Source: a bacterium (lineage in GTDB: Bacteria > Patescibacteriota > Patescibacteriia > 2-01-FULL-39-33). Taken from it: a DNA stretch of 64,000 bases. Below are positions 9,756 through 46,807 of the stretch, piece after piece (the first letter of the stretch is position 1; each line of letters starts with the position of its first letter). Position numbers and translations under genes: made by a program. The notes beneath the pieces are model-generated. The model saw only the letters and a list, made by a program, of their open reading frames with translations. It was not told the DNA's origin and did no database searches. The DNA is taken from positions 1,909-65,908 of the forward strand of contig JBAXTU010000002.1 in assembly GCA_037130015.1 (NCBI GenBank), written 5' to 3'.

Positions 9756-10259
9756 TTAAGCGACTTGTTTTTCTTTTTCCTCTTTAATGGCATTAATTAC
9801 TCTGGCCAAACCTGACATAGGATTAGACAAACAGCCAACCAATTTGGCAAGCAATTCTTTTTTGGAAGGAATCTTTGATAGTGCAGTCACCTTGTCCGCA
9901 TCAATATAATTACCTTCAAAAACACCGCCCACAAATTTCAATTTATCAAGCTCTTTTAAGAAACTGGCCACGATCTTGGCTGGAGCAACTTCATCTTCAT
10001 AAGAAAACAAAGTGGCTACTTCGCCATTAAGCGTCTGTTCGTTAGTTGGAGCAATTCCTTTTTCACTCAAAGCTTTTTTTAAAATTGTTTTTTTAGCCAC
10101 CAAATAGTCAATGCCCTCGGCGCGACACTTGTCACGCAAACGATTGACATCTTTAACTGCCACGCCTAAAAAATTAAACATGACAGCCGATTTCATTTTG
10201 GCTATCTTTTCATTTAAAATTTCCAAAACTTGTTCTTTTTGTTCTTTTGTTTTTGGCAT
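9756..10259 (-). CDS. rplJ: 50S ribosomal protein L10
   Basis: MPKTKEQKEQVLEILNEKIAKMKSAVMFNFLGVAVKDVNRLRDKCRAEGIDYLVAKKTI; internal ATG at 10257-10259 preferred over the longer ORF-track start. Confidence 0.9.
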   Translation of the reverse strand: MPKTKEQKEQVLEILNEKIAKMKSAVMFNFLGVAVKDVNRLRDKCRAEGIDYLVAKKTILKKALSEKGIAPTNEQTLNGEVATLFSYEDEVAPAKIVASFLKELDKLKFVGGVFEGNYIDADKVTALSKIPSKKELLAKLVGCLSNPMSGLARVINAIKEEKEKQVA

Positions 10260-10497
10260 ATTTTTATGTTTATTTAAATAAAAAATCTGTGGATAGACCA
10301 CAGACGCGCAAAATTGCCAAAAAGGCATATTTTTCCTGGATAGGTCTGCTTTTTAGAGCAAATTAAGCCTTTTTGGCGCCCATTGTCTGTGGAATTTAAT
10401 TGATTGATATTATTATAGCAAATTTTAAATAAATGTCAATATTTAAGAAAAGACCGCCCAAACTTTGTTTGGACGGCCATACAAGAGGAATTTTCCC

Positions 10498-35061: not shown

Positions 35062-36261
35062 ATGAAGATACTCGTTATCAACAAATTTTTATATCCCAAG
35101 GGCGGAGCCGAAACTTATCTGCTTGCCCTTTCAAAACTTTTGCGCCAAGATGGCCATGAGGTGATTTATTTTTCCCAACAAAATAAAAAAAATATTTCTG
35201 CCTCAACAGCTAAATATTTTTTACCAGATTTGGATTTGTCAGGCCAAAATAAAAAAAATATTTTAGGTCTAGGACGAATTTTTTGGTCTTTTTCAGCTCA
35301 AAAAAAATTAGATCAATTAATTAAAACAGAAAAACCAGACTTGGTGCATCTGCACAATATTTATCATCAAATTTCCCCTTCAATTCTTAAAACCATCAAA
35401 AAACATAACCTGCCAGTAGTCATGACCGTGCATGATTTTAAATTAGTCAAACATGATTATACTCTGCGCGCCGATGGCCAAAAAACCAGACACAAAAATT
35501 CACTGGCTATTGATTTATTACTCAAGGCTGAAATGACTTTTCATAAACTGTTAAAAATTTATGAAAAAAATATTGATTTGTTTATTGCACCATCAGAATT
35601 TGTAAAAAAAGAACTGCTAAAAAAAGGCTTTGACGAAAAAAAAATCATAGTAGTACCACATTTTATTGACTTAACTACTTACCCTAATTCTCAAAATACC
35701 GAAGCTGGAGATTATATTCTTTACGCTGGCCGATTGGACGAAAGTAAAGGCGTTGATCTATTAATAAAAGTGGCCAATCGTATCAATAATAATTTAAAAT
35801 TAAAAATTGCCGGCACGGGCCCGCAAGAGAAAAAACTGCACGAACTGGTAAAAAAACTAGGCGCTGAAAAAAAAGTAGAATTTTTAAAACACTTGGACAA
35901 ACAGCAATTAATCAATGTGATTAAAAATTGTCGCTTCACAGTTTTTCCTTCGCGAGTACACGAAACTTTTGGCTTGGGAATTTTAGAAAGCTATGCTTGT
36001 TTCAAGCCAACCTTGGCTTCTAGGGCAGGCGCCTTTACTGAAATTTTACAAGATGGCCAAACTGGTATATTATTTGAAGTGAACGATGCCATCGGATTAA
36101 AAAAAATAATTGAGACTTTATGGAATGGTCCAAGCTTGGCAGTTATGGGGAAAAAAGGAAGAAAACTAGTAGAACAAAAATATCAACCACAAAAACATTT
36201 AGAACAAATTTTAAACATCTATAATAATTTAAAAGATGAAAAAAATTCTGCTGGCAATTAG
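35062..36261 (+). CDS. glycosyltransferase family 1 (GT4-like)
   Basis: MKILVINKFLYPKGGAETY N-terminus; C-terminal EtfGLgilESyA GT1 motif. Confidence 0.8.
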   Translation: MKILVINKFLYPKGGAETYLLALSKLLRQDGHEVIYFSQQNKKNISASTAKYFLPDLDLSGQNKKNILGLGRIFWSFSAQKKLDQLIKTEKPDLVHLHNIYHQISPSILKTIKKHNLPVVMTVHDFKLVKHDYTLRADGQKTRHKNSLAIDLLLKAEMTFHKLLKIYEKNIDLFIAPSEFVKKELLKKGFDEKKIIVVPHFIDLTTYPNSQNTEAGDYILYAGRLDESKGVDLLIKVANRINNNLKLKIAGTGPQEKKLHELVKKLGAEKKVEFLKHLDKQQLINVIKNCRFTVFPSRVHETFGLGILESYACFKPTLASRAGAFTEILQDGQTGILFEVNDAIGLKKIIETLWNGPSLAVMGKKGRKLVEQKYQPQKHLEQILNIYNNLKDEKNSAGN

Positions 36262-38266
36262 TTTCTGTTTTTTAATTACAGCCATACCAGCCAATGCTAA
36301 TGACAATTCAAATTATACTTTATTGACCACCCGATATCCGCGAGTGGTCAATTTATATTGGAAAACACCCATAACTCAAGCTGAGGCCAAAAAACTGGCC
36401 AAGTGGGATATGTTGGCACTCTCCATGGATGCACAAATTGACAGCTCCGACTCCATAAAATATATCAGGCAATTAAATCCCAAAATAGTTATTTTGGCCT
36501 ATACCTCAGCTACCGAGATTCCGCTTGAAACTCGCCTAAATATTATGGAACCACATGGCCTTGGCCTTTGGCATGATCTTATTAGCGACATCAGTCCAGA
36601 GTGGTATCTAAAAACAACCGACGGGCAAAATATTTCTTGGTGGCCAGGCAATGTTTCTATGAATCTTTATGCTACGGACAAAAACGGTCGCACTTATGGG
36701 GATTATTTATCAGATTTTTTTGCCAAAAAAGTGCTCACCACCGGACTTTGGGATGGTTTGCTTTTTGACAACACTTGGCAGAATATTTCTTACATCAACA
36801 AAAAAATAGACATTGACGCAAATGGAGAAATTGATGCTCCGGAAAAAATTGACGGCTTATGGCATGAAAGTTATGAAAATTTATTTTCACAAATAAGAAA
36901 CCAAATCGGCGCCAAATATTTAATTATCGGCAATGGCGATGGCTATTATCAAACAAATACTAATGGCCGAATGTTTGAAGGTTTTCCCGAGATTGGCGAA
37001 GGCGGTTGGACAGGACAAATGCCAAAATATCAAGACAACATCATAGACGGCTATGTGCCACGAGTTAATATTATAAATTCAGACGCCAATAACACAGACA
37101 ATCAAAACGATTTTAAAGATATGCGCTATGGACTGTCCAACACTCTCATGGGCGACGGTTTTTACAGCTTTGATTACGGCCCGGACTTGCGTGAACAATT
37201 TTGGTGGTATGACGAATATGACGCCAATTTAGGACAACCGATTTCTACGCCATTTAATTTTTTTGATAAAAATAATGCCAGTCTCACGCCTAGCGTTTGG
37301 CAAAGAAATTTCTCCCAAGGCATTGTGCTAGTCAATTCAACAGAACAGCCACAAACCATAAATCTTGATCAGCCCTATGAAAAAATAAACGGCACTCAGG
37401 ATTTAAAAGTTAATAATGGAGAAACAATTGAAAGCGCCACTATCCCCGCTCATGACGGCCTGATTTTATTTAAACCTATTACCAGTCTTGATGATATTAT
37501 TTTTATAAATAATTATAATATCAAAATTTTCAGTGGCGATGGACGAAGCGTGCGCAAAATTTTTTCTATTGATGATCAAAATTTTGCAAGTAATTTAAAA
37601 ATTATTAATACCGACATTAATAATGATGGACAAGATGAAATAATTACCGCTGACAAAAATAAAATTTCCATCTATAACGCCGACCATAAATTAATAAACT
37701 ATTTTTATCCGCTTGGGACAAAATATACTGGGGGAATTTCTTTGGCCATTGGTGATTTGTCTGGCGACAAAAAAACAGAAATCGTAGTTGGTGGCGAAAC
37801 TGGCAATGCCAATCTAATAAAAATATTCAACACTTCAGGAAAACTATTGCGATCGTTTAATGCTTATAATAAAAATTATAAAAGCATTGGCGTGAATGTG
37901 GCTTTAGGAGACACTAATGGCGATGGCAAAATGGAAATTATCACTGGCGCTAGCTATGGCTATGCACCAATTATAAAAATTTTTAGTGATATGGGGAAAA
38001 TTTTAAACAATGGTTTTTTGGCTTATGACAACAAATTCAAAGGTGGAGTCAATGTGGCGTCTGGCAACATTAATAGCGATGGCCGGGCCGAAATTATCAC
38101 CGGCCCAGACCTTGGTGGCGGACCGCAAATTCGCACTTTTGATGCCAAAGGCAAACTATTAAACTCTTGGTGGGCTGGTGAAACCACTGGTAATCAAGGT
38201 ATTAAAATTGGCACAACAGATATTGACGGCGATGGCGAATCTGAAATTTTAACTTTTAAAAAATAA
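36236..38266 (+). CDS. secreted glycoside-hydrolase-like domain protein with C-terminal FG-GAP/VCBS beta-propeller repeats
   Basis: signal peptide MKKILLAISFCFLITAIPANA; repeated D-x-N/D-G-D-G-x-x-E-I motifs (DINNDGQDEIITA, GDTNGDGKMEIITG, NINSDGRAEIITG, DIDGDGESEIL). Confidence 0.65.
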   Translation: MKKILLAISFCFLITAIPANANDNSNYTLLTTRYPRVVNLYWKTPITQAEAKKLAKWDMLALSMDAQIDSSDSIKYIRQLNPKIVILAYTSATEIPLETRLNIMEPHGLGLWHDLISDISPEWYLKTTDGQNISWWPGNVSMNLYATDKNGRTYGDYLSDFFAKKVLTTGLWDGLLFDNTWQNISYINKKIDIDANGEIDAPEKIDGLWHESYENLFSQIRNQIGAKYLIIGNGDGYYQTNTNGRMFEGFPEIGEGGWTGQMPKYQDNIIDGYVPRVNIINSDANNTDNQNDFKDMRYGLSNTLMGDGFYSFDYGPDLREQFWWYDEYDANLGQPISTPFNFFDKNNASLTPSVWQRNFSQGIVLVNSTEQPQTINLDQPYEKINGTQDLKVNNGETIESATIPAHDGLILFKPITSLDDIIFINNYNIKIFSGDGRSVRKIFSIDDQNFASNLKIINTDINNDGQDEIITADKNKISIYNADHKLINYFYPLGTKYTGGISLAIGDLSGDKKTEIVVGGETGNANLIKIFNTSGKLLRSFNAYNKNYKSIGVNVALGDTNGDGKMEIITGASYGYAPIIKIFSDMGKILNNGFLAYDNKFKGGVNVASGNINSDGRAEIITGPDLGGGPQIRTFDAKGKLLNSWWAGETTGNQGIKIGTTDIDGDGESEILTFKK

Positions 38267-38312: not shown

Positions 38313-38342
38313 TTGACAAAAAAACCTTTATTTGCTAATATA
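38313..38342 (+). promoter_or_regulatory. sigma70-like promoter TTGACA-18-TAATAT
   Basis: read from sequence; ~165 nt upstream of lipoprotein start. Confidence 0.5.
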
Positions 38343-38508
38343 CTTTATTAAACTTTTGTGGCTATTGCCCTATCATGGCAAAATTGCAAAAGATTAATGT
38401 TTGGACATTAACAACATAAGTGAGAAGTCGCAATAAACTCTGACAGAGCCCATCGCTCGACAGAGAATGTGACTTAAAAAAACAGCCCTACGGGCAAGGA
38501 GTAGTACC

Positions 38509-39822
38509 ATGAATAAGAATTTGTTTTTCGCAATGCTTGTAACCCTAACCGCAACCATTCTCATTGGTTGCCCACCCCCGGACACTAACCTGGCCACGAC
38601 ACTGAAAGTGACGGCCGACTTCTACAAGACGACCGCCCACGAGGGAGGAACGGACAGTTATCTGTTTTCTCTAGACGGTGCCAATAATCAAGTGTCCGCC
38701 ACCCAACCAACCAACGGCGCCGACTACTTCATTTTAAGTATTGAGGCGGTCAATAGTGCCAACATACCGGCAGACTTTTCCTGGGACGTGTCCGTCTCGG
38801 AAAACGACGGACCACTACTTCCATTATCTGGGAAGTTCGGGGCTGGCGACGGTGACGCGAAGCTAAGGCTTTACCTTGAGGACTTTTCCTCTGAATTCAC
38901 GATAGTTGTAAATTCCAAGGCCGGCCAACAGAACTCTGATGGAGTAAATCTCAGCGAATGGAAACAGTCGCGGACGATTTCACTCTCACAGTCTGTTGCC
39001 AAAAAACCAACAGAAGGTGAAGGTGAAGGTGAAGGTGAAGCAGTGGTAGCTGGATTACCAGTCATCACAACCCAACCTCCAGCCACTTTGTCGGCCGATG
39101 TTGGTGAACAAGTGACCATTAGCCTGACAGCTACTGGCGCCACTTCGTATCAGTGGTACGACAATAGTGTCGCTATTACCGAGGCAAATTGGCCAGAAAT
39201 AGCCAAATATTCCTCAGGATGGAATACCAATACATTGGTGATCTTTTCCTGCGGAACGCTAAACGCTGGTTTTTATCAGTGTAAGGTCACAAATTCCGCT
39301 GGGACAATACTTTCCAGTGGATGTAAACTGACCATAACTAATGGAAACGGTGCGGTCACTGAAGGTGAGGGTGAAGGCGAAGGCGAAACTGGAGGAGGTA
39401 CTCCCCCTGGAAGTGACGGTGGACGAGTCAAAGTAAATTTGACCGCCACAGCCGGAGCAAAAACTCTAACAGGAGTTTTTGATAACTTCTCCAGCAAGGA
39501 TTTTTCATCCTTGTTTATTAACGGCACTGGTATAACAATGGGATCAGGACTACAGATAAAACTGTGCCTGTTCTATATTGAAAAACCAGGCAACGGTTCC
39601 CAACCAGCCAAGACCATCACTGGAACAGTAGCCAGTGACGGCAAAACAATCACCTGGGATCTGGGAGGATTGACCACGGATGCGGTCAAGACCAACTGGA
39701 AAATAACTATGATAGCCGTTACCAGTAGCAAAGAATACTGGTTAAATACCGGTATGCTAGATGCTTTCTGGAACGGCACTATTATGAGCCGTCTATCAGA
39801 TGGCAACTACGCTGGGTCATAA
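38509..39822 (+). CDS. lipoprotein with Ig-like (I-set) domain and short (EG)n linkers
   Basis: lipobox LIGC; ITTQPPATLSADVGEQVTISLTATGATSYQWYDNS...GFYQCKV Ig-like domain; EGEGEGE tracts; GC-rich. Confidence 0.75.
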   Translation: MNKNLFFAMLVTLTATILIGCPPPDTNLATTLKVTADFYKTTAHEGGTDSYLFSLDGANNQVSATQPTNGADYFILSIEAVNSANIPADFSWDVSVSENDGPLLPLSGKFGAGDGDAKLRLYLEDFSSEFTIVVNSKAGQQNSDGVNLSEWKQSRTISLSQSVAKKPTEGEGEGEGEAVVAGLPVITTQPPATLSADVGEQVTISLTATGATSYQWYDNSVAITEANWPEIAKYSSGWNTNTLVIFSCGTLNAGFYQCKVTNSAGTILSSGCKLTITNGNGAVTEGEGEGEGETGGGTPPGSDGGRVKVNLTATAGAKTLTGVFDNFSSKDFSSLFINGTGITMGSGLQIKLCLFYIEKPGNGSQPAKTITGTVASDGKTITWDLGGLTTDAVKTNWKITMIAVTSSKEYWLNTGMLDAFWNGTIMSRLSDGNYAGS

Positions 39823-39883
39823 ACCCAGCCCAACAAAAAGGGTAAATGACTTTCCCTAAACAAGTCATAAATTCGCACAAACC

Positions 39884-39917
39884 CGCGGAGAACACAAGTT
39901 GTTCTCCGCTTTTTTTT
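39884..39917 (+). terminator. intrinsic terminator
   Basis: gcggagaaca-caag-ttgttctccgc 10-bp stem + TTTTTTTT. Confidence 0.65.
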
Positions 39918-39968
39918 ATTTAAATTTAAACAAAATATACACAAAATTATAAATTAAAAAATTAGCTA

Positions 39969-39997
39969 TTGACAAAAATACTAATCAATGCTATACT
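39969..39997 (+). promoter_or_regulatory. sigma70-like promoter TTGACA-17-TATACT
   Basis: read from sequence. Confidence 0.5.
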
Positions 39998-40130
39998 TTT
40001 CTATTAAATGGTTTTAATAAAAAGCCATTTAAAGCCCCTTACAATTTGGAGCTTACGGACCGTTTCCCTGTCGGAAACGGACTAGTTTGTGTAAAAGAAA
40101 AAAAACAAAGAAACAACAAGGAGAGCAAAA

Positions 40131-42551
40131 ATGAAGAAAATGATGAGTATTGCAACACTGTTGGTAATCGTGATCATAATCACCGGTTGCCCCGCCCCCC
40201 AAACCACGTCCAATAGTAGCCAAACCGGCACCAACGGACAGACCGACACAACCGGCGCCAAAACAGCGCCAAAGTTCACGCTACAGCCAATCCCCCAGAC
40301 AAAAAATCCTGGGGAAACAGCTGAATTTTCTGTTGAAGTGACTGGCACACCAAAGCCAGTACTACAATGGCAGAAAGATGGCAAAGTTATTAGTGGTGCA
40401 ACCACTAACAAACTAACCATCGCTTCTGTTAAGCCGACTGACGAAGGCGAATACAACGCCAAGGCAGCCAGCACAGAAGGTTTTGCGGACTCGGCAGTGG
40501 CTTACCTTTGGGTAAATAAAGCACCTGCCATAACACTGCAACCATCCAACATCATCGCCAAAATTGGCGAGGCAGTGCAGTTCAGTGTGGTCGCCACAGG
40601 CACAGCACCACTCTCCTACCAATGGAGAAAGGGTGCTATACCAATTAGCGACGGCACGAACTCCAATCTCCTAATGTCAAATATTCAGCTGACTGATGTA
40701 GGAGAGTATTGGTGTGAGGTCAGCAATGCCATAGGGCATGTTGACTCCAACACCGCATCTCTCACAATTCAAACTGCTGAAGTCGAAGGAGAGGGAGAGG
40801 GAGAAGGCGAAGGAGAGGGAGAGGGAGAAGGCGAAGGAGAGGGAGAGGGAGAAGGCGAAGGTGAAGGTGAAGGTGAAGGCGAAGGTGAAGGTGAAGGTGA
40901 AGGCGAAGGCATTGCCCCAACCATCACTGGTCAGCCAAGTGATGTAACGGCCACAGTTGGCCAAGCAATACAATTTAGTATCACTGCAACCGGTACAGAA
41001 CCTTTGACCTACCAATGGAGAAAGGGTGCTACAACGGTTAGCAGTGCTACAACCTGTGCGCTGCAACTTTCCAACGTCCAATTAACTGACGCGGGAGATT
41101 ACTGGTGCCAAGTCACCAACCCCATCAATCGTGCCGACTCCAACCCCGCAACCCTCACAGTCAATCCGGCTGTTGAAGGCGAAGGTGAAGGTGAAGGTGA
41201 AGGCGAAGGTGAAGGTGAAGGCGAAGGTGAAGGTGAAGGTGAAGGTGAAGGCGAAGGCGAAGGCGAAGGTGAAGGCGAAGGCGAAGGCATTGCCCCAACC
41301 ATCACTGATCAACCAGTCGGTCAAACCATCAATGAAGGCGGTACGCTGACATTGACAGTGACAGCTACTGGTACGGCGCCACTTGCTTATCAATGGTCCA
41401 ATAATGGCCAGGCAATAAGCGGTGCCACTTTTGCCACATACTCAACACTTCTAGCCGATTCATCGGACGAAGGAAAGTATCGTTGCAAGGTGACGAACAC
41501 TGTCGGCAATGCAACTTCTGACACAGCCAGGGTCTATATCAATGGCAAAGCAGAAGTTCGTATTTCTTATGCTGGTAGTGGAGAAACCTGGTTCTTGGCA
41601 GATTTCAATCCCAATGGACAAACGTTAGAAACGTTTATGTCATCAGATGTTAATACTGATGAAAGTCCGAAGGACATCACTGCTGTCGGGATAGTGGCTA
41701 TGAAAAACGACTATACCATGGAACCGATGGGAGTAGATGGTCTACCAACATCAGCACCGACCGAAGGGTTAGTTTTTGATGGTAAAGGAGTCTATGACTC
41801 GGCCGGCCAAGCACGCGCCGACAGAGCATATGATCCGGCAAAAACTTACAAAATATATTTGGTCTTTCAGATCAAAAACCCAAACACTGGCGTTTCTAGG
41901 ATGCTGATTGGAAACAACAGCATGATCAAGATGACACTGAACGGTGTAGCACTAGCCATGAGCGATGGGTCAAACTATGACCTCAAACTCGGTAGTGCAA
42001 TAATATTAATTAAACCAATCATCACAACTAAACCTCCAGTCAGTTCGTCAGTTGCCACCAATGGCAGTCTGACATTGGAAATCAATGTTGCTATCAACGA
42101 ACCATTGGTATACCAGTGGTACAAAAATGACATCATTGTCGTTGACAGCCCAGCCTCGGCACCGCATATCAGCGGAGCCATGACCGACACACTGATTATC
42201 AGCAACGCCCAACCGGCCGACACTGGTAAGTATACCTGTGTGGTCAACAACGGAGCTGGCGAAACTGTTTCTGCCGAAGCCACGGTGACTGTCACTGGAG
42301 CAAGCGCCCTACCAAGGATTGCTCTAAACCCGACGAGTCAAACCGTCAACCCAAACACTGCTGTCACTTTTTCAGTGAATGCAGAGGGTGGAGTTGGTAC
42401 TCTCGGGTATCAGTGGTTCAAGGTTGTTGGCTCAACCGATCCAATACCGGTGCCCACAGCAACGACCAACAAGCTGGTCATCAGCAACACGACCGATGCG
42501 GATGAGGCAGGCTACTTCTGCCGAGTCTACAACGGCACTATAGTGTCGTAA
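40131..42551 (+). CDS. large lipoprotein with at least five Ig I-set-like domains separated by long (Glu-Gly)n linkers
   Basis: lipobox ITGC; repeated W-x-K-(D)G...D-x-G-x-Y-x-C pattern ([13 protein letters not shown]...DEGEYNA; [13 protein letters not shown]...DVGEYWCEV, x3); two EG tracts of ~21 and ~19 pairs. Confidence 0.8.
40785..40910 (+). repeat. (GAR-GGN)21 simple-sequence tract encoding (Glu-Gly)21
   Basis: read directly. Confidence 0.9.
41175..41288 (+). repeat. (GAR-GGN)19 simple-sequence tract encoding (Glu-Gly)19
   Basis: read directly. Confidence 0.9.
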
Positions 42552-42587: not shown

Positions 42588-42637
42588 ACAGCCAACAAAA
42601 ATCCTACTGGATATTTGTTGGCTGTTTTTCTTTTTTG
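42588..42637 (+). terminator. intrinsic terminator
   Basis: 12-bp stem acagccaacaaa/tttgttggctgt + TTTTTCTTTTTT. Confidence 0.65.
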
Positions 42638-42672: not shown

Positions 42673-42701
42673 TTGACAAAATCATACAAACTTGATAACA
42701 T
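42673..42701 (+). promoter_or_regulatory. sigma70-like promoter TTGACA-17-TAACAT
   Basis: read from sequence, 20 bp upstream of GT gene. Confidence 0.5.
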
Positions 42702-42720: not shown

Positions 42721-43863
42721 ATGAAAATAGCATTAATCGGACAAAAAGGCATCCCTGCCAAACAAGGCGGTGTTGAAAAACACGTTCAAGAACTGAGCAC
42801 TCGTTTAGCTCAGGCTGGTTTTGATGTGACTGCCTACTGCCGTCCGCATTATACTGGAGAAAAAAAGAAAAATTACAAAAAAGTAAAAATTGTTAATTTA
42901 CCATCAATCAATACCAAACATCTTGATGCTATCAGCCATACTTTCCTGGCAACCATTCATTCATTATTTCAAAATTATGACATTATTCATTATCACGGCG
43001 TGGGTCCTTCTTTACTTTCGTGGATCCCAAGGTTGTTAAATCCAAAAACCAAAGTGATTGTCACTTTTCATTCAGTGGATAGAAAACAGCAAAAATGGGG
43101 TTTGTTTGCCAGAGTCATGCTGACTGTTGGCGAATGGACTGCTTGCCATTTTCCTCATGAGACTATTACTATTTCTCAGACCTTGCAAAAATATTGCTTA
43201 TTCAAATTTGATACCGAAACTATTTATATTCCTAATGGAGTCCAAATTTCTAATCAAAAAAAGAAAAAGGCTATTTTAGAACAATACGGCCTAGAACCAA
43301 AAAAATATTTTCTGGTGGCTTCAAGACTAGTCAAACATAAAGGCATTCAAACCTTGATCAAGGCTTATCAAAAAATAAAAACAGACAAAAAATTAGTCAT
43401 CGTTGGTGGCGGATCAAACACCGGCAACTTTACTGAGGAATTGAAAAACTTGGCCAGACCTACCAGCAATATTGTCTTTACTGGAGAACAAGTCGGACTT
43501 GAACTGGAAACCTTATTCAGAAATGCTTATTTGTTTGTCCAGCCGTCAGAAGCCGAGGGTTTATCAATTGCCCTATTAGAAGCCATGTCTTATGGACTGC
43601 CAGTCATTGTCAGCGATATTGAAGAAAATCTAGAAGCCATGGATGGCCACGGTTTGTCTTTCAAAAACAAAAATGTCAATGATTTATCCAGACAGCTTAA
43701 TTTTGCCATCAAACATCCGATAATTATTTCTAAAAATGCCAAATTGGCCAAACGTCAAACAGATAAAAAATATAATTGGGATGATATTGTCAGTCGCACT
43801 ATTGGTTTATATGAACAAACAATTATCAGTGACAAACAATTAGTCCTGCAAAAAGCTAAATAA
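42721..43863 (+). CDS. glycosyltransferase family 1
   Basis: MKIALIGQKGIPAKQGGVEKHV N-terminus; C-terminal EAEGLSIALLEAMSYGLPVI GT1 motif. Confidence 0.8.
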   Translation: MKIALIGQKGIPAKQGGVEKHVQELSTRLAQAGFDVTAYCRPHYTGEKKKNYKKVKIVNLPSINTKHLDAISHTFLATIHSLFQNYDIIHYHGVGPSLLSWIPRLLNPKTKVIVTFHSVDRKQQKWGLFARVMLTVGEWTACHFPHETITISQTLQKYCLFKFDTETIYIPNGVQISNQKKKKAILEQYGLEPKKYFLVASRLVKHKGIQTLIKAYQKIKTDKKLVIVGGGSNTGNFTEELKNLARPTSNIVFTGEQVGLELETLFRNAYLFVQPSEAEGLSIALLEAMSYGLPVIVSDIEENLEAMDGHGLSFKNKNVNDLSRQLNFAIKHPIIISKNAKLAKRQTDKKYNWDDIVSRTIGLYEQTIISDKQLVLQKAK

Positions 43864-43873
43864 CACTTCAAAA

Positions 43874-43905
43874 ATCCGTCCGCTACATGCGGGCGGATTT
43901 TTTTG
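43874..43905 (+). terminator. intrinsic terminator
   Basis: atccgtccgc-tacat-gcgggcggat + TTTTTTT. Confidence 0.6.
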
Positions 43906-43946
43906 TTGGCAAACAACTATTGTTTTATGGTATAATTATATTAATA

Positions 43947-43965
43947 ATTCGCCAGCTGGCAAATC
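43947..43965. promoter_or_regulatory. 19-nt motif AATTCGCCAGCTGGCAAAT (palindromic core GCCAGCTGGC) upstream of pilB
   Basis: near-identical copy AATTCGCCAGTTGGCAAAT at 57040..57058 upstream of pyrG. Confidence 0.3.
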
Positions 43966-43979
43966 AACAATCATAACTT

Positions 43980-45707
43980 ATGATCAACCAAAAGGAACTG
44001 GAACAAATTTTGTTGCAAAACAAAATTACTGATGAAGCCAAACTAAAAGAATACAACGAAAGCGCCAAAAAAGTAGGCTCGACTTTGGAGTTTTTTTTAT
44101 TGAATCAAAAAATCATCACAGCAGATTTACTATACGAAACAGCTGCCAAATTCTATAACCTGCCTTTTATTGATTTAAAAGACAAAGTAATTCGTCCAGA
44201 TGTTTTATCCATTATTCCAGAAGTGACGGCTCAAGCACATCAAACAGTGGCCTTTGACCAAAAAGACAAAGAACTATTCATAGCCACTTTAAATATTTCC
44301 AATTTGGAATTGTTTGATTTTTTAAAAAGAAAAACCGGCTTTGAATTAAAATTAAATCTTGCATCTCCAGATAGTATCGATGAAGCCATCAAGCAATACC
44401 ACAAAGGATTATCAATAGAATTGGAAAAAATAAACAAAGACAACACAGCAGAAAATGCGGACAAACCACAAAAATTAAAAGATCTGGCCCAAGATTTGCC
44501 AATTGTCAAAATCGTAGACACCATGCTGGAATATGCTATTTTTGAAAAAGCCTCTGATATCCACATTGAACCAGAAGAAAAAGATGTGGCCATTCGCTAC
44601 CGTATTGATGGTATTTTACGCAGTGTCATGACCCTACCAAAAAACACTCACGCCGGCGTGGTGGCTCGCCTCAAAATATTATCCAATTTAAAACTTGACG
44701 AACATCGCCTGCCCCAAGACGGCCGTTTCAAAATAGATAGAGAAAATACTCAAGTTGCTTTCCGTGTTTCCATTTTGCCAACTTTTGATGGTGAAAAAAT
44801 AGTTTTGCGTTTATTGCCCGATCAAGATCAAGGTTTGACTTTGGAGCAATTGGGCTTTCAACCTCAAATTTTAGAAATGGTCAAAAAAAATATTGGCAAG
44901 CCAAACGGCATGATTTTGGTGACTGGCCCAACTGGATCTGGCAAAACCACCACACTTTATACGATGCTTCATATTCTCAATCGCCCTGAAGTTAATATTT
45001 CTACTGTTGAAGATCCAATTGAATATCGCATGCCAGGTGTCAACCAAAGCCAAGTCCAACCTAAAATAGGTTTCACTTTTGCCAGTGGATTGCGCGCCCT
45101 GCTTCGCCAAGACCCAAATATAATCATGGTGGGAGAAATTCGTGACCAAGAAACAGCCGAGATTTCCATTAATGCTGCCATGACTGGCCATTTGGTTTTG
45201 TCCACTCTGCACACCAACGACGCCATCACAGCCATTCCCAGATTGACAGACATGCAAGTGCCAACATTTTTAATTTCATCCACTCTTAATATTATTATTG
45301 CTCAGCGTTTGGTACGCAAAATTTGCAAAAATTGTATTGAGAGTTATCAACTTGATGAAAATAGTATCAAAGAATTAGAAAGGCAATTTAATTTGGCTGA
45401 AGTGTCAAAATCGCTCACCGAAAAAGGCCTGTTAGTCGCGGGCCAAGATATCAAAACCGTACTTTTTTATCGTGGCAAAGGTTGCCATCAATGCGGAGAT
45501 AGTGGCTACAAAGGACGACTTGGCATTTATGAAGCTTTTGAAAATAACAACAAAATAAGCGAATTAATTATTAAAAAAGCCTCACGAGAAGAATTGGAAA
45601 AAATTGTTTTAGAACAAGGCATGATTACTATGGCCATAGACGGTTTTATTAAGGCCAAAAACGGCATCACTTCTATTGAGGAAGTGCTTCGTGTCACTAG
45701 AGAATAA
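43980..45707 (+). CDS. pilB: type IV pilus assembly ATPase PilB (GspE family)
   Basis: 575 aa; Walker A GPTGSGKTTTLYTM; tetracysteine CKNC...CHQC. Confidence 0.95.
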   Translation: MINQKELEQILLQNKITDEAKLKEYNESAKKVGSTLEFFLLNQKIITADLLYETAAKFYNLPFIDLKDKVIRPDVLSIIPEVTAQAHQTVAFDQKDKELFIATLNISNLELFDFLKRKTGFELKLNLASPDSIDEAIKQYHKGLSIELEKINKDNTAENADKPQKLKDLAQDLPIVKIVDTMLEYAIFEKASDIHIEPEEKDVAIRYRIDGILRSVMTLPKNTHAGVVARLKILSNLKLDEHRLPQDGRFKIDRENTQVAFRVSILPTFDGEKIVLRLLPDQDQGLTLEQLGFQPQILEMVKKNIGKPNGMILVTGPTGSGKTTTLYTMLHILNRPEVNISTVEDPIEYRMPGVNQSQVQPKIGFTFASGLRALLRQDPNIIMVGEIRDQETAEISINAAMTGHLVLSTLHTNDAITAIPRLTDMQVPTFLISSTLNIIIAQRLVRKICKNCIESYQLDENSIKELERQFNLAEVSKSLTEKGLLVAGQDIKTVLFYRGKGCHQCGDSGYKGRLGIYEAFENNNKISELIIKKASREELEKIVLEQGMITMAIDGFIKAKNGITSIEEVLRVTRE

Positions 45708-45724
45708 AAATAAAAATAAATCAA

Positions 45725-46807
45725 ATGACCAGTCTCAACAACCTAAGCGATAAATTTATTATGAAATTCGCCAGAGTACCAATCTCCGGCAAAATATTCT
45801 TTTTACAAAATTTATCAGTCATGATCAAGGCTGGTGTGCCTTTGGATCAAGCCCTAAAAACACTTGGCGAACAAGGTAAAAATCGCAAGTTAGAAATGAT
45901 TATCAATGAAATGATTATCAAAGTTAATCAGGGCAAAAGTTTCTCTGAAAGCCTAGAACCATACAAATATGACTTTGGCGAAATGTTCATAAACATGATT
46001 AAAGCTGGTGAAGCTGGCGGAAATTTGGAAAGCGTCCTACAAAAACTTTATTTACAAACCAAACGAGATCATACTGTCAGATCAAAAATAAAAAATGCCC
46101 TCACCTACCCAGCCATAATTATTGTGGCCATGGTCTTTATTGCTTTTTTCATGGCTTTTTTCGTTTTACCAAATATTACCAAAATGTTTGCCGACATCAA
46201 CACTCAATTGCCACTAGTCACTAGAGTACTTATTGGCTTTTCTGATTTTTGCCAAAACAATGTCGTGGCAATTATAATTGTTTGCTCCTTGCTAGTTTTG
46301 GGATTCATTGAAGCCATGCGCACCAAGCGTGGCCGGCATATTTTTGATTTAATACTACTAGAAATTCCAATTGTCTCTGGTATTATCAAAAAAATCAATC
46401 TAGCTTCTCTGGCCAGAAATTTAAGCTCGCTCATTCAAACAGATATTCCAATTGATCAAAGTCTAGTAATTACTTCTCGTGTTCTTAATAACTCGGTTTT
46501 TCGCTTGGCTCTAGCTGAAGCAGCCGAACAAGTAAAAAAAGGTAAGAAACTTGATTTAATTTTAAAAAATAACAAAAAAATATTTCCACCACTTCTCATT
46601 CAAATGATCGCTATTGGTGAAGAAACAGGATCATTAGAAGAAATTTTGCAAAACCTTGCTGATTTTTATGAAGAAGATGTCTCACAAACCATGGACACTT
46701 TACCCACCATTATTGAACCAGTTTTAATGTTAACCATCGGCATAGGCGTGGCCGGTATTGCTCTGGCTATTCTGATGCCTATTTATTCCCTCAGCTCCAG
46801 TATTTAA
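45725..46807 (+). CDS. pilC: type IV pilus platform protein PilC (GspF family)
   Basis: 360 aa, three TM, duplicated GspF domain. Confidence 0.9.
   Translation: MTSLNNLSDKFIMKFARVPISGKIFFLQNLSVMIKAGVPLDQALKTLGEQGKNRKLEMIINEMIIKVNQGKSFSESLEPYKYDFGEMFINMIKAGEAGGNLESVLQKLYLQTKRDHTVRSKIKNALTYPAIIIVAMVFIAFFMAFFVLPNITKMFADINTQLPLVTRVLIGFSDFCQNNVVAIIIVCSLLVLGFIEAMRTKRGRHIFDLILLEIPIVSGIIKKINLASLARNLSSLIQTDIPIDQSLVITSRVLNNSVFRLALAEAAEQVKKGKKLDLILKNNKKIFPPLLIQMIAIGEETGSLEEILQNLADFYEEDVSQTMDTLPTIIEPVLMLTIGIGVAGIALAILMPIYSLSSSI

Follow-up and report, generated by a model that had tools for sequence, protein, structure and literature searches.

Two adjacent genes, A and B, in the window (the whole 64-kb stretch of DNA that was analysed) are likely to fill, in this genome, a surface-protein slot that is specific to the lineage and recombines rapidly. 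The host is a Buchananbacteria-like CPR bacterium, in which their lipid-anchored products would have an adhesin or recognition role. The pair was originally predicted to be a horizontally acquired set of eukaryote-like immunoglobulin (Ig) proteins. Since such domains proved to be very common in bacteria, and since relatives of the host have kindred genes at this very position, A and B do not constitute a rare eukaryote-like import.

The ORF ends of both genes matched the predicted ones exactly, and each gene has its own set of export and expression signals:
38313-38341, forward strand: promoter-like site of gene A, TTGACA-17-TAATAT, extended -10 TG; leader of about 167 nt
38496-38501, forward strand: RBS of gene A, AAGGAG, 7 nt before the ATG, read directly
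38509-39822, forward strand: gene A, 437-aa lipoprotein (NCBI MEI6288053.1, PGAP name "immunoglobulin domain-containing protein")
38509-38571, forward strand: signal peptide of gene A, lipobox LIGC, Cys21
39885-39918, forward strand: intrinsic terminator of gene A (hairpin 39885-39909, 10-bp stem, U8 tail, -17.1 kcal/mol, z -6.5)
39969-39997, forward strand: promoter-like site of gene B, TTGACA-17-TATACT, extended -10 TG; leader of about 133 nt
40118-40123, forward strand: RBS of gene B, AAGGAG, 7 nt before the ATG, read directly
40131-42551, forward strand: gene B, 806-aa lipoprotein with six Ig domains
40131-40190, forward strand: signal peptide of gene B, lipobox ITGC, Cys20, followed by an S/T/Q/N/G-rich tether (aa 21-45)
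42588-42636, forward strand: intrinsic terminator of gene B (hairpin 42588-42625, long interrupted stem, U-rich tail, -23.7 kcal/mol, z -7.6)

The N-termini of A (MNKNLFFAMLVTLTATILIGC, Cys21) and B (Cys20) satisfy a PROSITE PS51257-style lipoprotein rule, in agreement with the predicted lipobox signal peptides. The strong terminators were likewise borne out, as none of 200 shuffles folded as well as either hairpin. Both genes also have the expected promoter-like sites, which rank among the top scorers of a 5-kb scan (13 sites versus 7.1±2.9 in shuffles), but the -10 element of A departs from the strict TAnAnT that had been proposed. A weak hairpin lies in the leader of B (40060-40080). A and B are thus independent transcription units, each with its own promoter, RBS and terminator.

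The domain organization of the two proteins is as follows:
38572-39012, forward strand: N-domain of A, aa 22-168, unannotated
39013-39039, forward strand: first (EG)4 linker of A
39052-39342, forward strand: Ig_3/I-set domain of A, aa ~182-278
39361-39387, forward strand: second (EG)4 linker of A
39394-39819, forward strand: C-terminal copy of a ~140-aa module in A, aa 296-437, ending ...YWLNTG...WNG..MSRLSDGNY
40266-40778, forward strand: Ig1 and Ig2 of B, aa 46-216
40785-40910, forward strand: (EG)21 tract of B, aa 219-260, 21 GARGGN units with a 24-nt higher-order repeat
40914-41168, forward strand: Ig3 of B, aa 262-346, 58% identical to Ig2
41175-41288, forward strand: (EG)19 tract of B, aa 349-386
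41292-41546, forward strand: Ig4 of B, aa 388-472
41547-42005, forward strand: internal copy of the ~140-aa module in B, aa ~473-625
42006-42548, forward strand: Ig5 and Ig6 of B, aa 626-806

The repeated W-x-K-D/G-G ... D-x-G-x-Y-x-C modules recognized in B from the sequence alone correspond to six I-set/Ig_3 domains in Pfam (Ig_3, E 1.2e-68 over six stretches; I-set, E 1.1e-63 over five), that is, to the classical families and not to bacterial Big_2/Big_3 folds; A has a single such domain (Ig_3, 2.4e-7; I-set, 6.8e-7). B contains six [YL]QW motifs, and DxGxYxC is exact in four domains and variant in two. The canonical Ig disulfide is absent because the B-strand cysteine is missing from every Ig domain. 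The Glu-Gly tracts of 19 and 21 pairs have the predicted lengths, but in reverse order, with the longer one first; they have GAAGGT/GAAGGC units and a "GIAPTIT" junction in common. Pfam and PDB searches gave no match for the N-domain of A, which is common only to the slot lipoproteins of the related loci L008 and L010 (30-33% identity), and none for either copy of the ~140-aa module. The latter is undescribed and apparently all-beta; its two AlphaFold models had low confidence (pLDDT 38 and 43).

PilB encoded next to the pair is 67-73% identical to that of MAGs titled Patescibacteria group or Ca. Buchananbacteria, and by this comparison the host is a CPR/Patescibacteria bacterium near Ca. Buchananbacteria. 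The slot lies between two conserved flanks:
36236-38266, forward strand: left flank, secreted GHL15 glycoside-hydrolase-like/FG-GAP protein of native composition
42721-46807, forward strand: right flank, GT4 glycosyltransferase, PilB ATPase and PilC platform

Downstream of the right flank come pilin-like genes and pilM. The slot has a fixed position in the chromosome: exopolysaccharide-type genes (Wzz, Wzy, GT4, GHL15/FG-GAP) lie on one side of it, the type IV pilus operon GT4-pilB-pilC on the other. Integrase, transposase, tRNA and flanking repeat are all absent from the slot, no phage-like genes were found around it, PADLOC returned no matches, and Lgt and LspA were not seen within the window. 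The same window holds a complete DGR, 15 kb upstream of A and B.

We examined the related genomes over ±10 kb around pilB. The order Wzy-GT4-GHL15/FG-GAP-[slot]-GT4-PilB-PilC is kept in loci L002-L019 and L085, and in at least 12 related genomes the same slot is filled by GC-rich lipoproteins or secreted proteins. Twelve further genes there have [LVFA][TVSA]GC lipoboxes, usually with Pro as the next residue, and others have plain signal peptides. Their products combine (EG/GE)n linkers of 4-14 pairs with Ig_3/I-set, Flg_new_2 (InlB B-repeat), Bact_surface_Ig-like (DUF5011) and TSP3 domains. One slot protein each of L008 and L010 (L008_a, L010_a) aligns with A across the N-domain and the Ig domain (30-33% identity, E 1e-24 to 5e-30), and B aligns over aa 131-618 with a slot protein of L003 (L003_a) and over aa 458-805 (module-Ig-Ig) with one of L009 (L009_a). 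The ~140-aa module is carried by A, B and 10 slot proteins, and in the fetched DNA it is confined to the slot and to the clade with PilB at least 67% identical. Cassette replacement within the clade is seen directly between L008 and L010, which are collinear at 79-82% nucleotide identity over 21 kb save for one non-homologous replacement that begins within the lipoprotein gene and stops just ahead of GT4b. An apparent difference in repeat number, 14 versus 13, was a contig-end artefact.

The codon composition of A and B was predicted to be GC-richer than that of neighbouring genes, and GC3 and codon-usage comparisons agreed: the two are the strongest outliers and clearly non-native. Their GC (0.481 and 0.498) and GC3 (0.468 and 0.457) compare with 0.375±0.039 and 0.333±0.060 in the other 42 ORFs of the window, and their codon-usage log-likelihood z-scores (-5.8 and -5.0) are the most deviant. 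Amino-acid composition with host codon usage predicts a GC3 of just 0.35, and the excess survives removal of the EG tracts (0.479). The compositional change falls exactly on the ORF borders; native intergenic DNA separates A from B, and the DNA flanking both is native-like (GC 0.32-0.34 versus a background of 0.319±0.064). Among the relatives, slot genes have a GC3 of 0.52-0.72 regardless of that of the flanks (0.32-0.63), with z above 2 in 9/12 related loci as well as at the slot of the window itself (maximum 14.9). In RSCU, too, slot genes resemble those of other genomes (distance 0.144) more than their own core (0.177); for this genome the two distances are practically equal (0.155 to other slots, 0.153 to its core). 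We read the GC-rich coding composition as a property of the entire family, not as a sign of recent foreign import. The slot GC3 of the window (0.46), the lowest among all slots, would also suit an older, partly ameliorated import. The GC-richness might stem from exchange of cassettes with relatives richer in GC, from GC-biased gene conversion where recombination is frequent or from synonymous-site selection.

More than 5,400 proteins among only 8,000 scored candidates match B, the named ones coming from Verrucomicrobiota, Kiritimatiellia and Acidobacteriota MAGs, and the lone Ig domain of A matches 1,720 cluster representatives. The claim that the I-set/titin-like pattern is rare in bacteria did not survive this search; PGAP already names A accordingly, and the best PDB sequence matches to B are non-eukaryotic (9ncf, "Immunoglobulin-like domain protein", E 3.6e-52; 9c2d, "tail protein", E 2.1e-43). 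The bacterial Ig_3/I-set proteins (PF13927/PF07679; Verrucomicrobiota, Kiritimatiellia, Planctomycetota-like and Acidobacteriota MAGs) resemble A and B in domain type, YQW and DxGxYxC motifs, tandem arrays and presumed surface location. They too usually miss the B-strand cysteine, with two or more cysteines in just 22% of ~2,700 sampled domains. They differ in being mostly at least 1,000-1,400 aa long, in having other partner domains and in lacking the ~140-aa module; (EG)≥4 tracts occur in 0/120 of the best non-CPR homologues. In the databases searched, the module is absent outside the clade, a provisional result as the word-indexed database covers few proteins of these MAGs. Tailed-phage decoration proteins (Hoc-like capsid decoration and the "tail protein" class), to which the two top PDB matches 9ncf and 9c2d point, have the same I-set-type domains as B, and those of Felixounavirus match Ig5-Ig6 at 32-35% identity; they are virion proteins without lipobox, EG linkers or the module. 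Hoc-like Ig domains of phages serve weak surface adhesion. Similarity to eukaryotic I-set proteins is also significant, including the motif pattern, with strong matches to solved structures of titin (I-band; 3b43, E 2.7e-31), Robo, contactin, sidekick and DSCAM. Unlike these, A and B have no intradomain disulfide or FN3, carry a bacterial lipoprotein signal and belong to a bacterial family of thousands, and the homologue searches yielded no evidence supporting a direct eukaryotic origin.

Recent joint acquisition of A and B from a distant, compositionally different donor (PVC bacteria, Acidobacteriota or, at the root, eukaryotes) would account for their codon usage, with GC3 0.13 over background, for the taxonomy of the top-scoring named full-length homologues and for the highest per-domain identities being to non-CPR proteins. 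However, relatives with a PilB of only ~70% identity have proteins of A-like and B-like architecture in the same slot, neither (EG)n linkers nor the module occur in the outside homologues described above, and promoters and flanking intergenic DNA are native in composition and style, in a slot devoid of mobility signatures. Nor did the homologue searches reveal a donor: outside homologues of B are 27-39% identical overall, none exceeding 39% across the whole alignment, and no near-identical outside source of A or B was found. Per-domain Ig identities (best non-CPR 45-55%, best CPR-slot 40-49%, from unequal samples of ~2,700 and ~25 domains) would be compatible with vertical descent or old transfer alike. 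We therefore consider such an acquisition by this genome improbable; as far as these comparisons reach, the foreign-looking composition characterizes a variable locus specific to this lineage and is not evidence of a one-off import. A chimeric join of GC-rich foreign DNA to a CPR contig during assembly or binning might be suspected from the sharp contrast in composition and from the MAG source, but an independently recorded JGI contig has the same sequence with both flanks, the composition switches precisely at ORF borders, and the architecture recurs in at least 12 other assemblies from different studies, leaving practically no room for an artefact.

A tentative possibility, which overlaps our preferred reading and differs solely in naming the cause of the composition, is repeated horizontal exchange within the clade, with the slot as a cassette-exchange hotspot that takes its GC-rich signature from GC-richer members. 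Exchange would proceed by homologous recombination via the conserved flanks, between Buchananbacteria-like lineages of differing GC, possibly after pilus-dependent DNA uptake. The L008/L010 replacement, with a breakpoint inside coding sequence, argues for it, as do the clustering of slot GC3 whatever the host background, the mutual RSCU resemblance of slot genes and the range of flank GC3 within the clade. NCBI strain names, which we take to encode genomic GC, point in the same direction (33-56% in the clade). Natural competence has also been reported in Patescibacteria (PMC10633639). Against it, several slots reach a GC3 of 0.70-0.72, over the highest flank mean sampled (0.63), divergent genomes share no near-identical cassette pair of the kind that recent transfer would leave, and the intergenic DNA within slots mostly has a low GC. 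By analogy with polymorphic toxin systems and with VARTIG, a hypervariable module of Ig-domain genes in Thermococcales (Makarova et al. 2021, PMC8416519), the locus might serve conflict or self/non-self recognition in place of adhesion. Like the CPR slot, VARTIG is clade-restricted, centred on multi-Ig proteins, presumed to act in recognition and subject to swapping of C-terminal parts by intra-clade recombination; it is archaeal, built on arCOG07710 proteins, and has variable downstream genes arranged like polymorphic toxin systems (PMC8416519). The likeness is one of organization. Lipoproteins, EG linkers and fixed flanks (GHL15/FG-GAP, GT4-pilB) set the CPR slot apart, and it is invariably followed by the conserved GT4, with no variable "immunity" genes downstream. 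In A, B and the ten slot proteins scanned, no toxin-like, immunity-like or enzymatic domain was detected, and together with the empty PADLOC result this makes a conflict role unlikely. It is hardly credible that the Ig lipoproteins are diversified by the DGR of the window, despite its proximity and although CPR genomes are known to be DGR-rich. That DGR has its own targets, two 328-aa genes (18/20 mismatches at template adenines), and A and B were rejected as targets of its template repeat, as no sequence resembling that repeat occurs anywhere in 38509-42551.

We thus favour a variable slot whose function is probably that of an adhesin or host-recognition locus. Of the predicted episymbiotic surface adhesin, lipid anchoring and the adhesin role remain reasonable and the CPR host makes a part in episymbiosis plausible; the one-off import does not stand. 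Variable surface lipoproteins with tandem-repeat spacers are known from Mycoplasma (Vlp/Vsa). There, too, a host-dependent bacterium with a reduced genome displays lipid-anchored surface proteins whose in-frame tandem repeats can vary by slippage; A and B have no sequence similarity to Vlp/Vsa, in which Ig domains play no part, and their own length variation is only potential. Judging from the lipoboxes, the products of A and B would be exported and lipid-anchored at Cys21 and Cys20. Tandem, disulfide-free I-set-type domains and polyanionic, presumably disordered (EG)n spacers may then form a long stalk that holds the Ig domains and the ~140-aa module off the membrane, past the wall or surface layer, where their role would be adhesion to, or recognition of, a partner cell or surface. 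The family evolves through shuffling of domains and cassettes within the clade, as seen between L008 and L010; the ~140-aa module and (EG)n linkers are reassorted in its slot proteins together with domains of the Ig, InlB-B-repeat and DUF5011-like types.

The window is core chromosome: it carries a division and cell-wall cluster (mraZ, mraW, a PBP, mraY and murB), secA and CTP synthase, together with a polysaccharide cluster (Wzz/Wzy/GT4) and a type IV pilus operon. Its PilB shares 67-73% identity with PilB of MAGs whose titles give Patescibacteria group or Candidatus Buchananbacteria, and 50-64% with PilB of Falkowbacteria, Kuenenbacteria, Komeilibacteria and others. The position between a GHL15/FG-GAP gene and GT4-pilB-pilC, hereafter the slot, is occupied by two genes, A and B, which the original prediction had presented as a horizontally acquired pair of eukaryote-like I-set adhesins. 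We confirmed that observation in all essentials, and found its headline interpretation overstated. Both ORFs lie exactly at the predicted coordinates on the + strand, with the following signals:

38313-38341, + strand: promoter of gene A, sigma-70-like with extended -10 TG (TTGACA-17-TAATAT)
38509-39822, + strand: gene A, ORF of 437 aa
39885-39909, + strand: hairpin of the gene A intrinsic terminator (U8 tail, -17.1 kcal/mol)
39969-39997, + strand: promoter of gene B, sigma-70-like with extended -10 TG (TTGACA-17-TATACT)
40131-42551, + strand: gene B, ORF of 806 aa
42588-42625, + strand: hairpin of the gene B intrinsic terminator (U-rich tail, -23.7 kcal/mol)

The two promoters rank among the best sites of the scan (13 sites versus 7.1±2.9 in shuffles), an AAGGAG ribosome-binding site precedes each ATG by 7 nt, and none of 200 shuffles folded as well as either terminator hairpin. 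Each gene thus has its own promoter and strong terminator, as predicted, and A and B form two separate transcription units. Their leaders are 167 nt (A) and 133 nt (B) long; Rfam detected no known RNA family in them (the sole match was at chance level, E 0.21), and a hairpin in the B leader (40060-40080) is weak (z -2.2). The same promoter style recurs at the adjacent GT4 gene (42673-42701), with TTGACA matched exactly, 17 nt of spacing, a TG extension of the -10 and a long leader, and three such promoters in succession indicate that canonical sigma-70 promoters are directly readable in this CPR genome.

Lipobox signal peptides are present in both proteins (MNK…LIGC with Cys21 in A, MKK…ITGC with Cys20 in B, and K within the first 7 residues), according to a PS51257-style (PROSITE) regular expression that requires the lipobox [LVI][ASTVI][GAS]C, Cys at 15-35 and a basic n-region. 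Neither Lgt nor LspA is among the annotated ORFs of the window. In A, the lipobox is followed by a ~147-aa unannotated N-domain, (EG)4, one Ig domain, (EG)4 and a ~140-aa unannotated C-domain. B consists of the lipobox, an S/T-rich tether, Ig1, Ig2, (EG)21, Ig3, (EG)19, Ig4, a ~155-aa unannotated region, Ig5 and Ig6.

We assigned Ig families by profile matches above the curated Pfam gathering thresholds. B matched Ig_3 (PF13927) in six stretches (E 1.2e-68, 228 bits, cut-off 30) and I-set (PF07679; E 1.1e-63, 211.7 bits, cut-off 23.7), and the single Ig domain of A passed both thresholds (31.6 bits against 30 for Ig_3, 29.7 bits against 23.7 for I-set). The core motifs of B comprise six [YL]QW, four exact DxGxYxC and the variants DEGEYNA and DEAGYFC. 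Each Ig domain has a single F-strand Cys and none has a B-strand Cys, so the canonical B-to-F-strand disulfide is absent. Only 22% of the sampled bacterial Ig domains of this class have two or more Cys; the one-Cys state is therefore typical of bacterial members and does not exclude A and B from the family. Neither protein matched Big_2 or Big_3, the bacterial families that the original prediction had named as the competing assignment, at E≤0.1 in Pfam (Big_3 and Bact_surface_Ig-like domains occur only in some relatives' slot proteins), and "I-set/titin-like" is a fair description. Among solved structures, the best matches were 9ncf ("Immunoglobulin-like domain protein") and 9c2d ("tail protein"), followed by titin, Robo, contactin, sidekick and DSCAM; from such matches to I-set structures we infer an Ig beta-sandwich fold.

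The further statement that such domains are rare in bacteria is contradicted by thousands of bacterial homologues and by the name that the NCBI pipeline already gives to A, "immunoglobulin domain-containing protein" (MEI6288053.1). More than 5,400 of 8,000 scored candidates were significant homologues of B; the named ones come from MAGs of Kiritimatiellia, Pedosphaera/Verrucomicrobiae/Limisphaerales and Acidobacteriota, often under the same title. In an exhaustive HMMER search, the Ig domain of A alone matched 1,720 representatives of clusters formed at 50% identity. When the whole of A was scanned, Ig matches dominated, and only two of the best 150 (P0190 and P0226) covered the N-domain. Felixounavirus capsid-decoration proteins are 32-35% identical to Ig5-Ig6 of B. 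With bacterial homologues this abundant and the two best PDB matches being 9ncf and 9c2d, the implied eukaryotic origin is unsupported: A and B join a class of Ig-domain proteins that is very common in bacteria.

The long Glu-Gly tracts of B are present as described. They are arrays of GARGGN hexamers with a higher-order period of 24 nt; (EG)21 and (EG)19 share common units and are each followed by the same "GIAPTIT" junction, a sign that an [EG-Ig] unit was duplicated or converted. Identity between Ig2 and Ig3 is 58%. EG tracts are absent from all of the 120 best non-CPR homologues. An apparent length polymorphism between L002 and L085, two of the related loci fetched around pilB in other genomes (14 versus 13 pairs), was rejected as a contig-end artefact, since the L002 contig starts within the repeat.

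The genes stand out in composition. GC is 0.48 in A and 0.50 in B, versus 0.375±0.039 in the other ORFs of the window, and GC3 is 0.47 and 0.46, versus 0.333±0.060; the two are also the most deviant genes of the window in synonymous codon usage (z -5.8 and -5.0). These comparisons bear out the GC-richer codons noted at first reading. The amino-acid composition predicts a GC3 of only 0.35, and the excess persists after removal of the EG tracts (0.479). As the L10 gene (inferred, 9756-10328) and other core genes are not GC3-rich, expression-linked codon bias is ruled out as an explanation. The identity of this rplJ-like ORF follows from an otherwise unremarkable ribosomal protein L10 leader next to it, upstream at 10270-10410 on the - strand (RF00557; 49 bits, exceeding the gathering score). 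The three intergenic regions flanking A and B have a GC of 0.32-0.34, versus a background intergenic value of 0.319±0.064, and the shift coincides exactly with the coding sequences.

We inspected ±10 kb around pilB in 85 fetched loci. Every relative that shares the arrangement (L002-L019 and L085) has the gene order Wzy, GT4, GHL15/FG-GAP, slot, GT4, PilB, PilC, and its slot always holds one to three GC-rich genes. Lipoboxes of the form [LVFA][TVSA]GC, mostly with Pro next, occur in 12 of these slot genes, and others have ordinary signal peptides. Many of the encoded proteins have linkers of 4-14 pairs, either (EG)n or (GE)n, and the proteins draw on a shuffled domain set of I-set/Ig_3, Flg_new_2 (a divergent InlB B-repeat), Bact_surface_Ig-like (DUF5011), TSP3 and PASTA. 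Counterparts of A in L008 and L010 share the N-domain, linker and Ig at 30-33% identity; counterparts of B occur in L003 and L009, the latter aligning with its C-terminal module-Ig-Ig architecture.

Two slot proteins of relatives (L002 2124-3386, also L085 8937-10199; and L011 759-1697) combine an ordinary signal peptide with a C-terminal hydrophobic helix and basic tail, ending in …WWLTIAIIAAALFAIRRTRKLSTN and …GLALLVMAIIAMATGGQRVLRTTKR; this feature suggests a C-terminal anchor or sorting signal, possibly an alternative surface attachment. Most relatives also have an extra gene of native composition between GHL15/FG-GAP and the slot, absent from the window genome, whose product (380-640 aa) has a hydrophobic stretch close to its N-terminus:

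L003, 1633-2910: extra gene
L007, 557-2473: extra gene
L008, 3480-4631: extra gene
L010, 5348-6499: extra gene
L017, 2289-4145: extra gene
L019, 6159-7847: extra gene

Many TPA MAG records with loci clearly syntenic to those of Patescibacteria (e.g., L004, L005, L012 and L017-L019) bear titles such as "uncultured Gammaproteobacteria bacterium" or "Bdellovibrionales", apparently through taxonomic mislabelling.

The slot proteins contain two unannotated modules. One, of ~140 aa and ending …F.NT…NG…DG.NYD, forms the C-domain of A and the internal region of B, and recurs in ten other slot proteins in N-terminal, internal or C-terminal position. It had no match in Pfam, and none in PDB, where the best E was 0.42. 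Its profile recovered only a fragment of A's own cluster from a word-indexed database of 5.8 billion proteins, a weak negative since that database evidently lacks the relatives' proteins; protein databases under-sample this Buchananbacteria-like clade. A motif-based scan of 241 million metagenome records with a 4-row alignment found no copy outside the clade, returning just contigs of the same organisms and L085. Across the 85 loci, the slot alone contains the module, Ig domains and EG tracts, and it does so only in the clade whose PilB is ≥67% identical. The module and the N-domain of A look mostly beta; predicted models are of low confidence (pLDDT 38 for protein A as a single sequence, 43 for the module with three rows). 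The other module, ~100 aa at the C-terminus (…GLELYQ..G..PWIERETF…KFR…RF.VV…NG…AFQV), alternates with the first and matches its profile only weakly (i-E 0.12), too weakly to establish a relationship. It occurs in:

L004, L006 and L014: ~100-aa module
L008, 6567-8084: ~100-aa module, at the C-terminus
L010, 6727-8088: ~100-aa module, at the C-terminus
L016: ~100-aa module, two copies

Recombination in the slot is seen between L008 and L010, which are collinear over 21 kb at 79-82% nucleotide identity with a single break, where L008 5751-8178 and L010 7609-8183 share no similarity. This break starts within the lipoprotein gene, past the part encoding the Ig domain, and stops shortly before the conserved GT4; it exchanges the C-terminal module and adds or removes one whole gene. 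This is a domain-level cassette replacement.

The window also contains a complete diversity-generating retroelement (DGR) at 20620-24590, with genes on the - strand:

20620-20952 and 21062-21601, - strand: DGR reverse transcriptase, split into two ORFs (RVT_1, E 2e-6)
21447-21926, + strand: helical Avd-like ORF
21924-22043: DGR template repeat, 120 nt, 83% identical to the 3' end of each of two target genes
22307-22426 and 23605-23724: DGR variable repeats

Of the 20 mismatches between template and variable repeats, 18 fall at template adenines, and at the protein level template Asn is replaced by D/Y/S/F/V/C. The target gene (328 aa, no Pfam match) is present in two tandem copies, 22306-23292 and 23604-24590, 1,298 bp apart, with identical proteins and identical variable regions. 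This is odd because independent mutagenesis should make copies differ, and it points either to a very recent duplication or to an assembly artefact. Together with an 888-aa hypothetical protein (17952-20618, no Pfam match), the DGR forms a second island of atypical composition between secA and murB (17952-24590; GC3 0.43-0.49, codon-usage z -3.2 to -4.6). We rejected DGR-driven diversification of A and B: neither contains template-repeat-like sequence, and the DGR targets the 328-aa genes instead.

Could the composition of A and B reflect horizontal acquisition, as originally proposed? The atypical composition itself stands (z -5.0 and -5.8; GC3 0.46 versus 0.33). Against acquisition, the slot is neither absent nor patchy in any relative with synteny and holds related GC-rich genes in all of them; the window has no tRNA, flanking repeats or slot ORFs besides A and B that would signal mobility; and we found no close donor, the best outside identity being ≤39% overall and ≤55% per domain. 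Nearest neighbours per domain were 45-55% identical outside CPR and 40-49% in CPR slots; with sample sizes ~100-fold unequal, these values do not point to a donor. We also rejected phage or mobile-element cargo, as there are no such genes, repeats or tRNA and only a generic Ig likeness to capsid decoration proteins, and an assembly chimera, as independent records have the sequence (a 71.7-kb contig of an NCBI MAG with locus tags WCP18_, and a JGI contig of sample 3300021473) and different studies show the same pattern.

GC-richness is instead a family trait of slot genes. In relatives, their GC3 is 0.52-0.72 while flank genes average 0.32-0.63; slot exceeds flank at z >2 in 9 of 12 related loci and in the window's own locus, with a maximum of 14.9 (L019), and the intergenic DNA inside slots is mostly of low GC. 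The mean RSCU distance of slot genes is smaller to slot genes elsewhere in the clade's genomes (0.144) than to the core of the same genome (0.177); in the window genome it is not (0.155 versus 0.153). Related GC-rich genes across the clade mean that a single recent import into this genome does not account for the data, and an ancient import that never ameliorated is unlikely, given the divergence of the clade. Three candidates may account for GC-rich coding as a family trait: cassette exchange among clade members of differing GC, for which NCBI strain names suggest a genomic range of 33-56% (under a naming convention that we take to encode GC); GC-biased gene conversion, a process known in bacteria, at a recombination hotspot; and selection on synonymous sites.

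What might these proteins do? A and B would be exported, receive a lipid at Cys20 or Cys21 and thereby be held at the cytoplasmic membrane of what is presumably a single-membrane CPR cell. Six Ig domains of ~4 nm each, with two polyanionic, glycine-rich spacers (42 and 38 residues), could span several tens of nm, and such a stalk may carry the Ig domains and the module past the wall or surface layer, where they would serve in adhesion or recognition. The location of the slot between polysaccharide genes and a type IV pilus operon fits a role in surface interaction, as does the requirement of cultivated Patescibacteria for pili and multiple adhesins in epibiotic growth (PMC10633639, PMC9894109).

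A conflict or self/non-self role, as proposed for the archaeal VARTIG module (PMC8416519), is the weaker alternative, because we found no toxin, immunity or defence domains in A, B or the scanned slot proteins; PADLOC gave no defence-system matches. As in VARTIG, the C-terminal region is hypervariable by within-clade recombination (the L008/L010 break, and modules swapped among slot proteins). Unlike VARTIG (arCOG07710) and polymorphic-toxin modules, the slot has no variable downstream partner or immunity genes, the downstream gene being the conserved GT4. On this comparison, the slot is an analogue of VARTIG and not a member. Apart from this analogue, we found nothing specific in the literature on CPR Ig lipoproteins, GC-rich or hypervariable CPR loci, or Buchananbacteria biology. 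Extending the surface-interaction reading, the slot might be a host-specificity cassette of Buchananbacteria-like episymbionts and a bacterial VARTIG counterpart, in which hypervariable lipid-anchored Ig/(EG)n recognition and the binding module would choose partner cells, and recurrent cassette exchange or GC-biased conversion, possibly linked to the adjacent pilus or competence machinery, would uphold the GC-richness of coding sequence in otherwise AT-rich genomes whose regulatory DNA is native-like; we consider this full scenario rather improbable.

What is new here is the context: a clade-restricted, recombining surface-lipoprotein slot beside a pilus operon, marked by an undescribed module, characteristic (EG)n spacers and persistently GC-rich coding. 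It shows clearly that atypical GC or codon usage alone does not prove recent horizontal transfer: its "foreign" composition is kept across a clade and limited to coding sequence. New families could be defined for the ~140-aa module and for the (EG)n spacers. A large part of bacterial diversity belongs to CPR/Patescibacteria, whose cultivated members live attached to other microbes; to our knowledge, the molecules of attachment and partner choice are almost unknown outside Saccharibacteria. This conserved, pilus-adjacent slot of fast-changing, lipid-anchored Ig-domain proteins is a concrete candidate determinant of attachment or partner choice, and a defined target for metatranscriptomics, surface proteomics or genetics.
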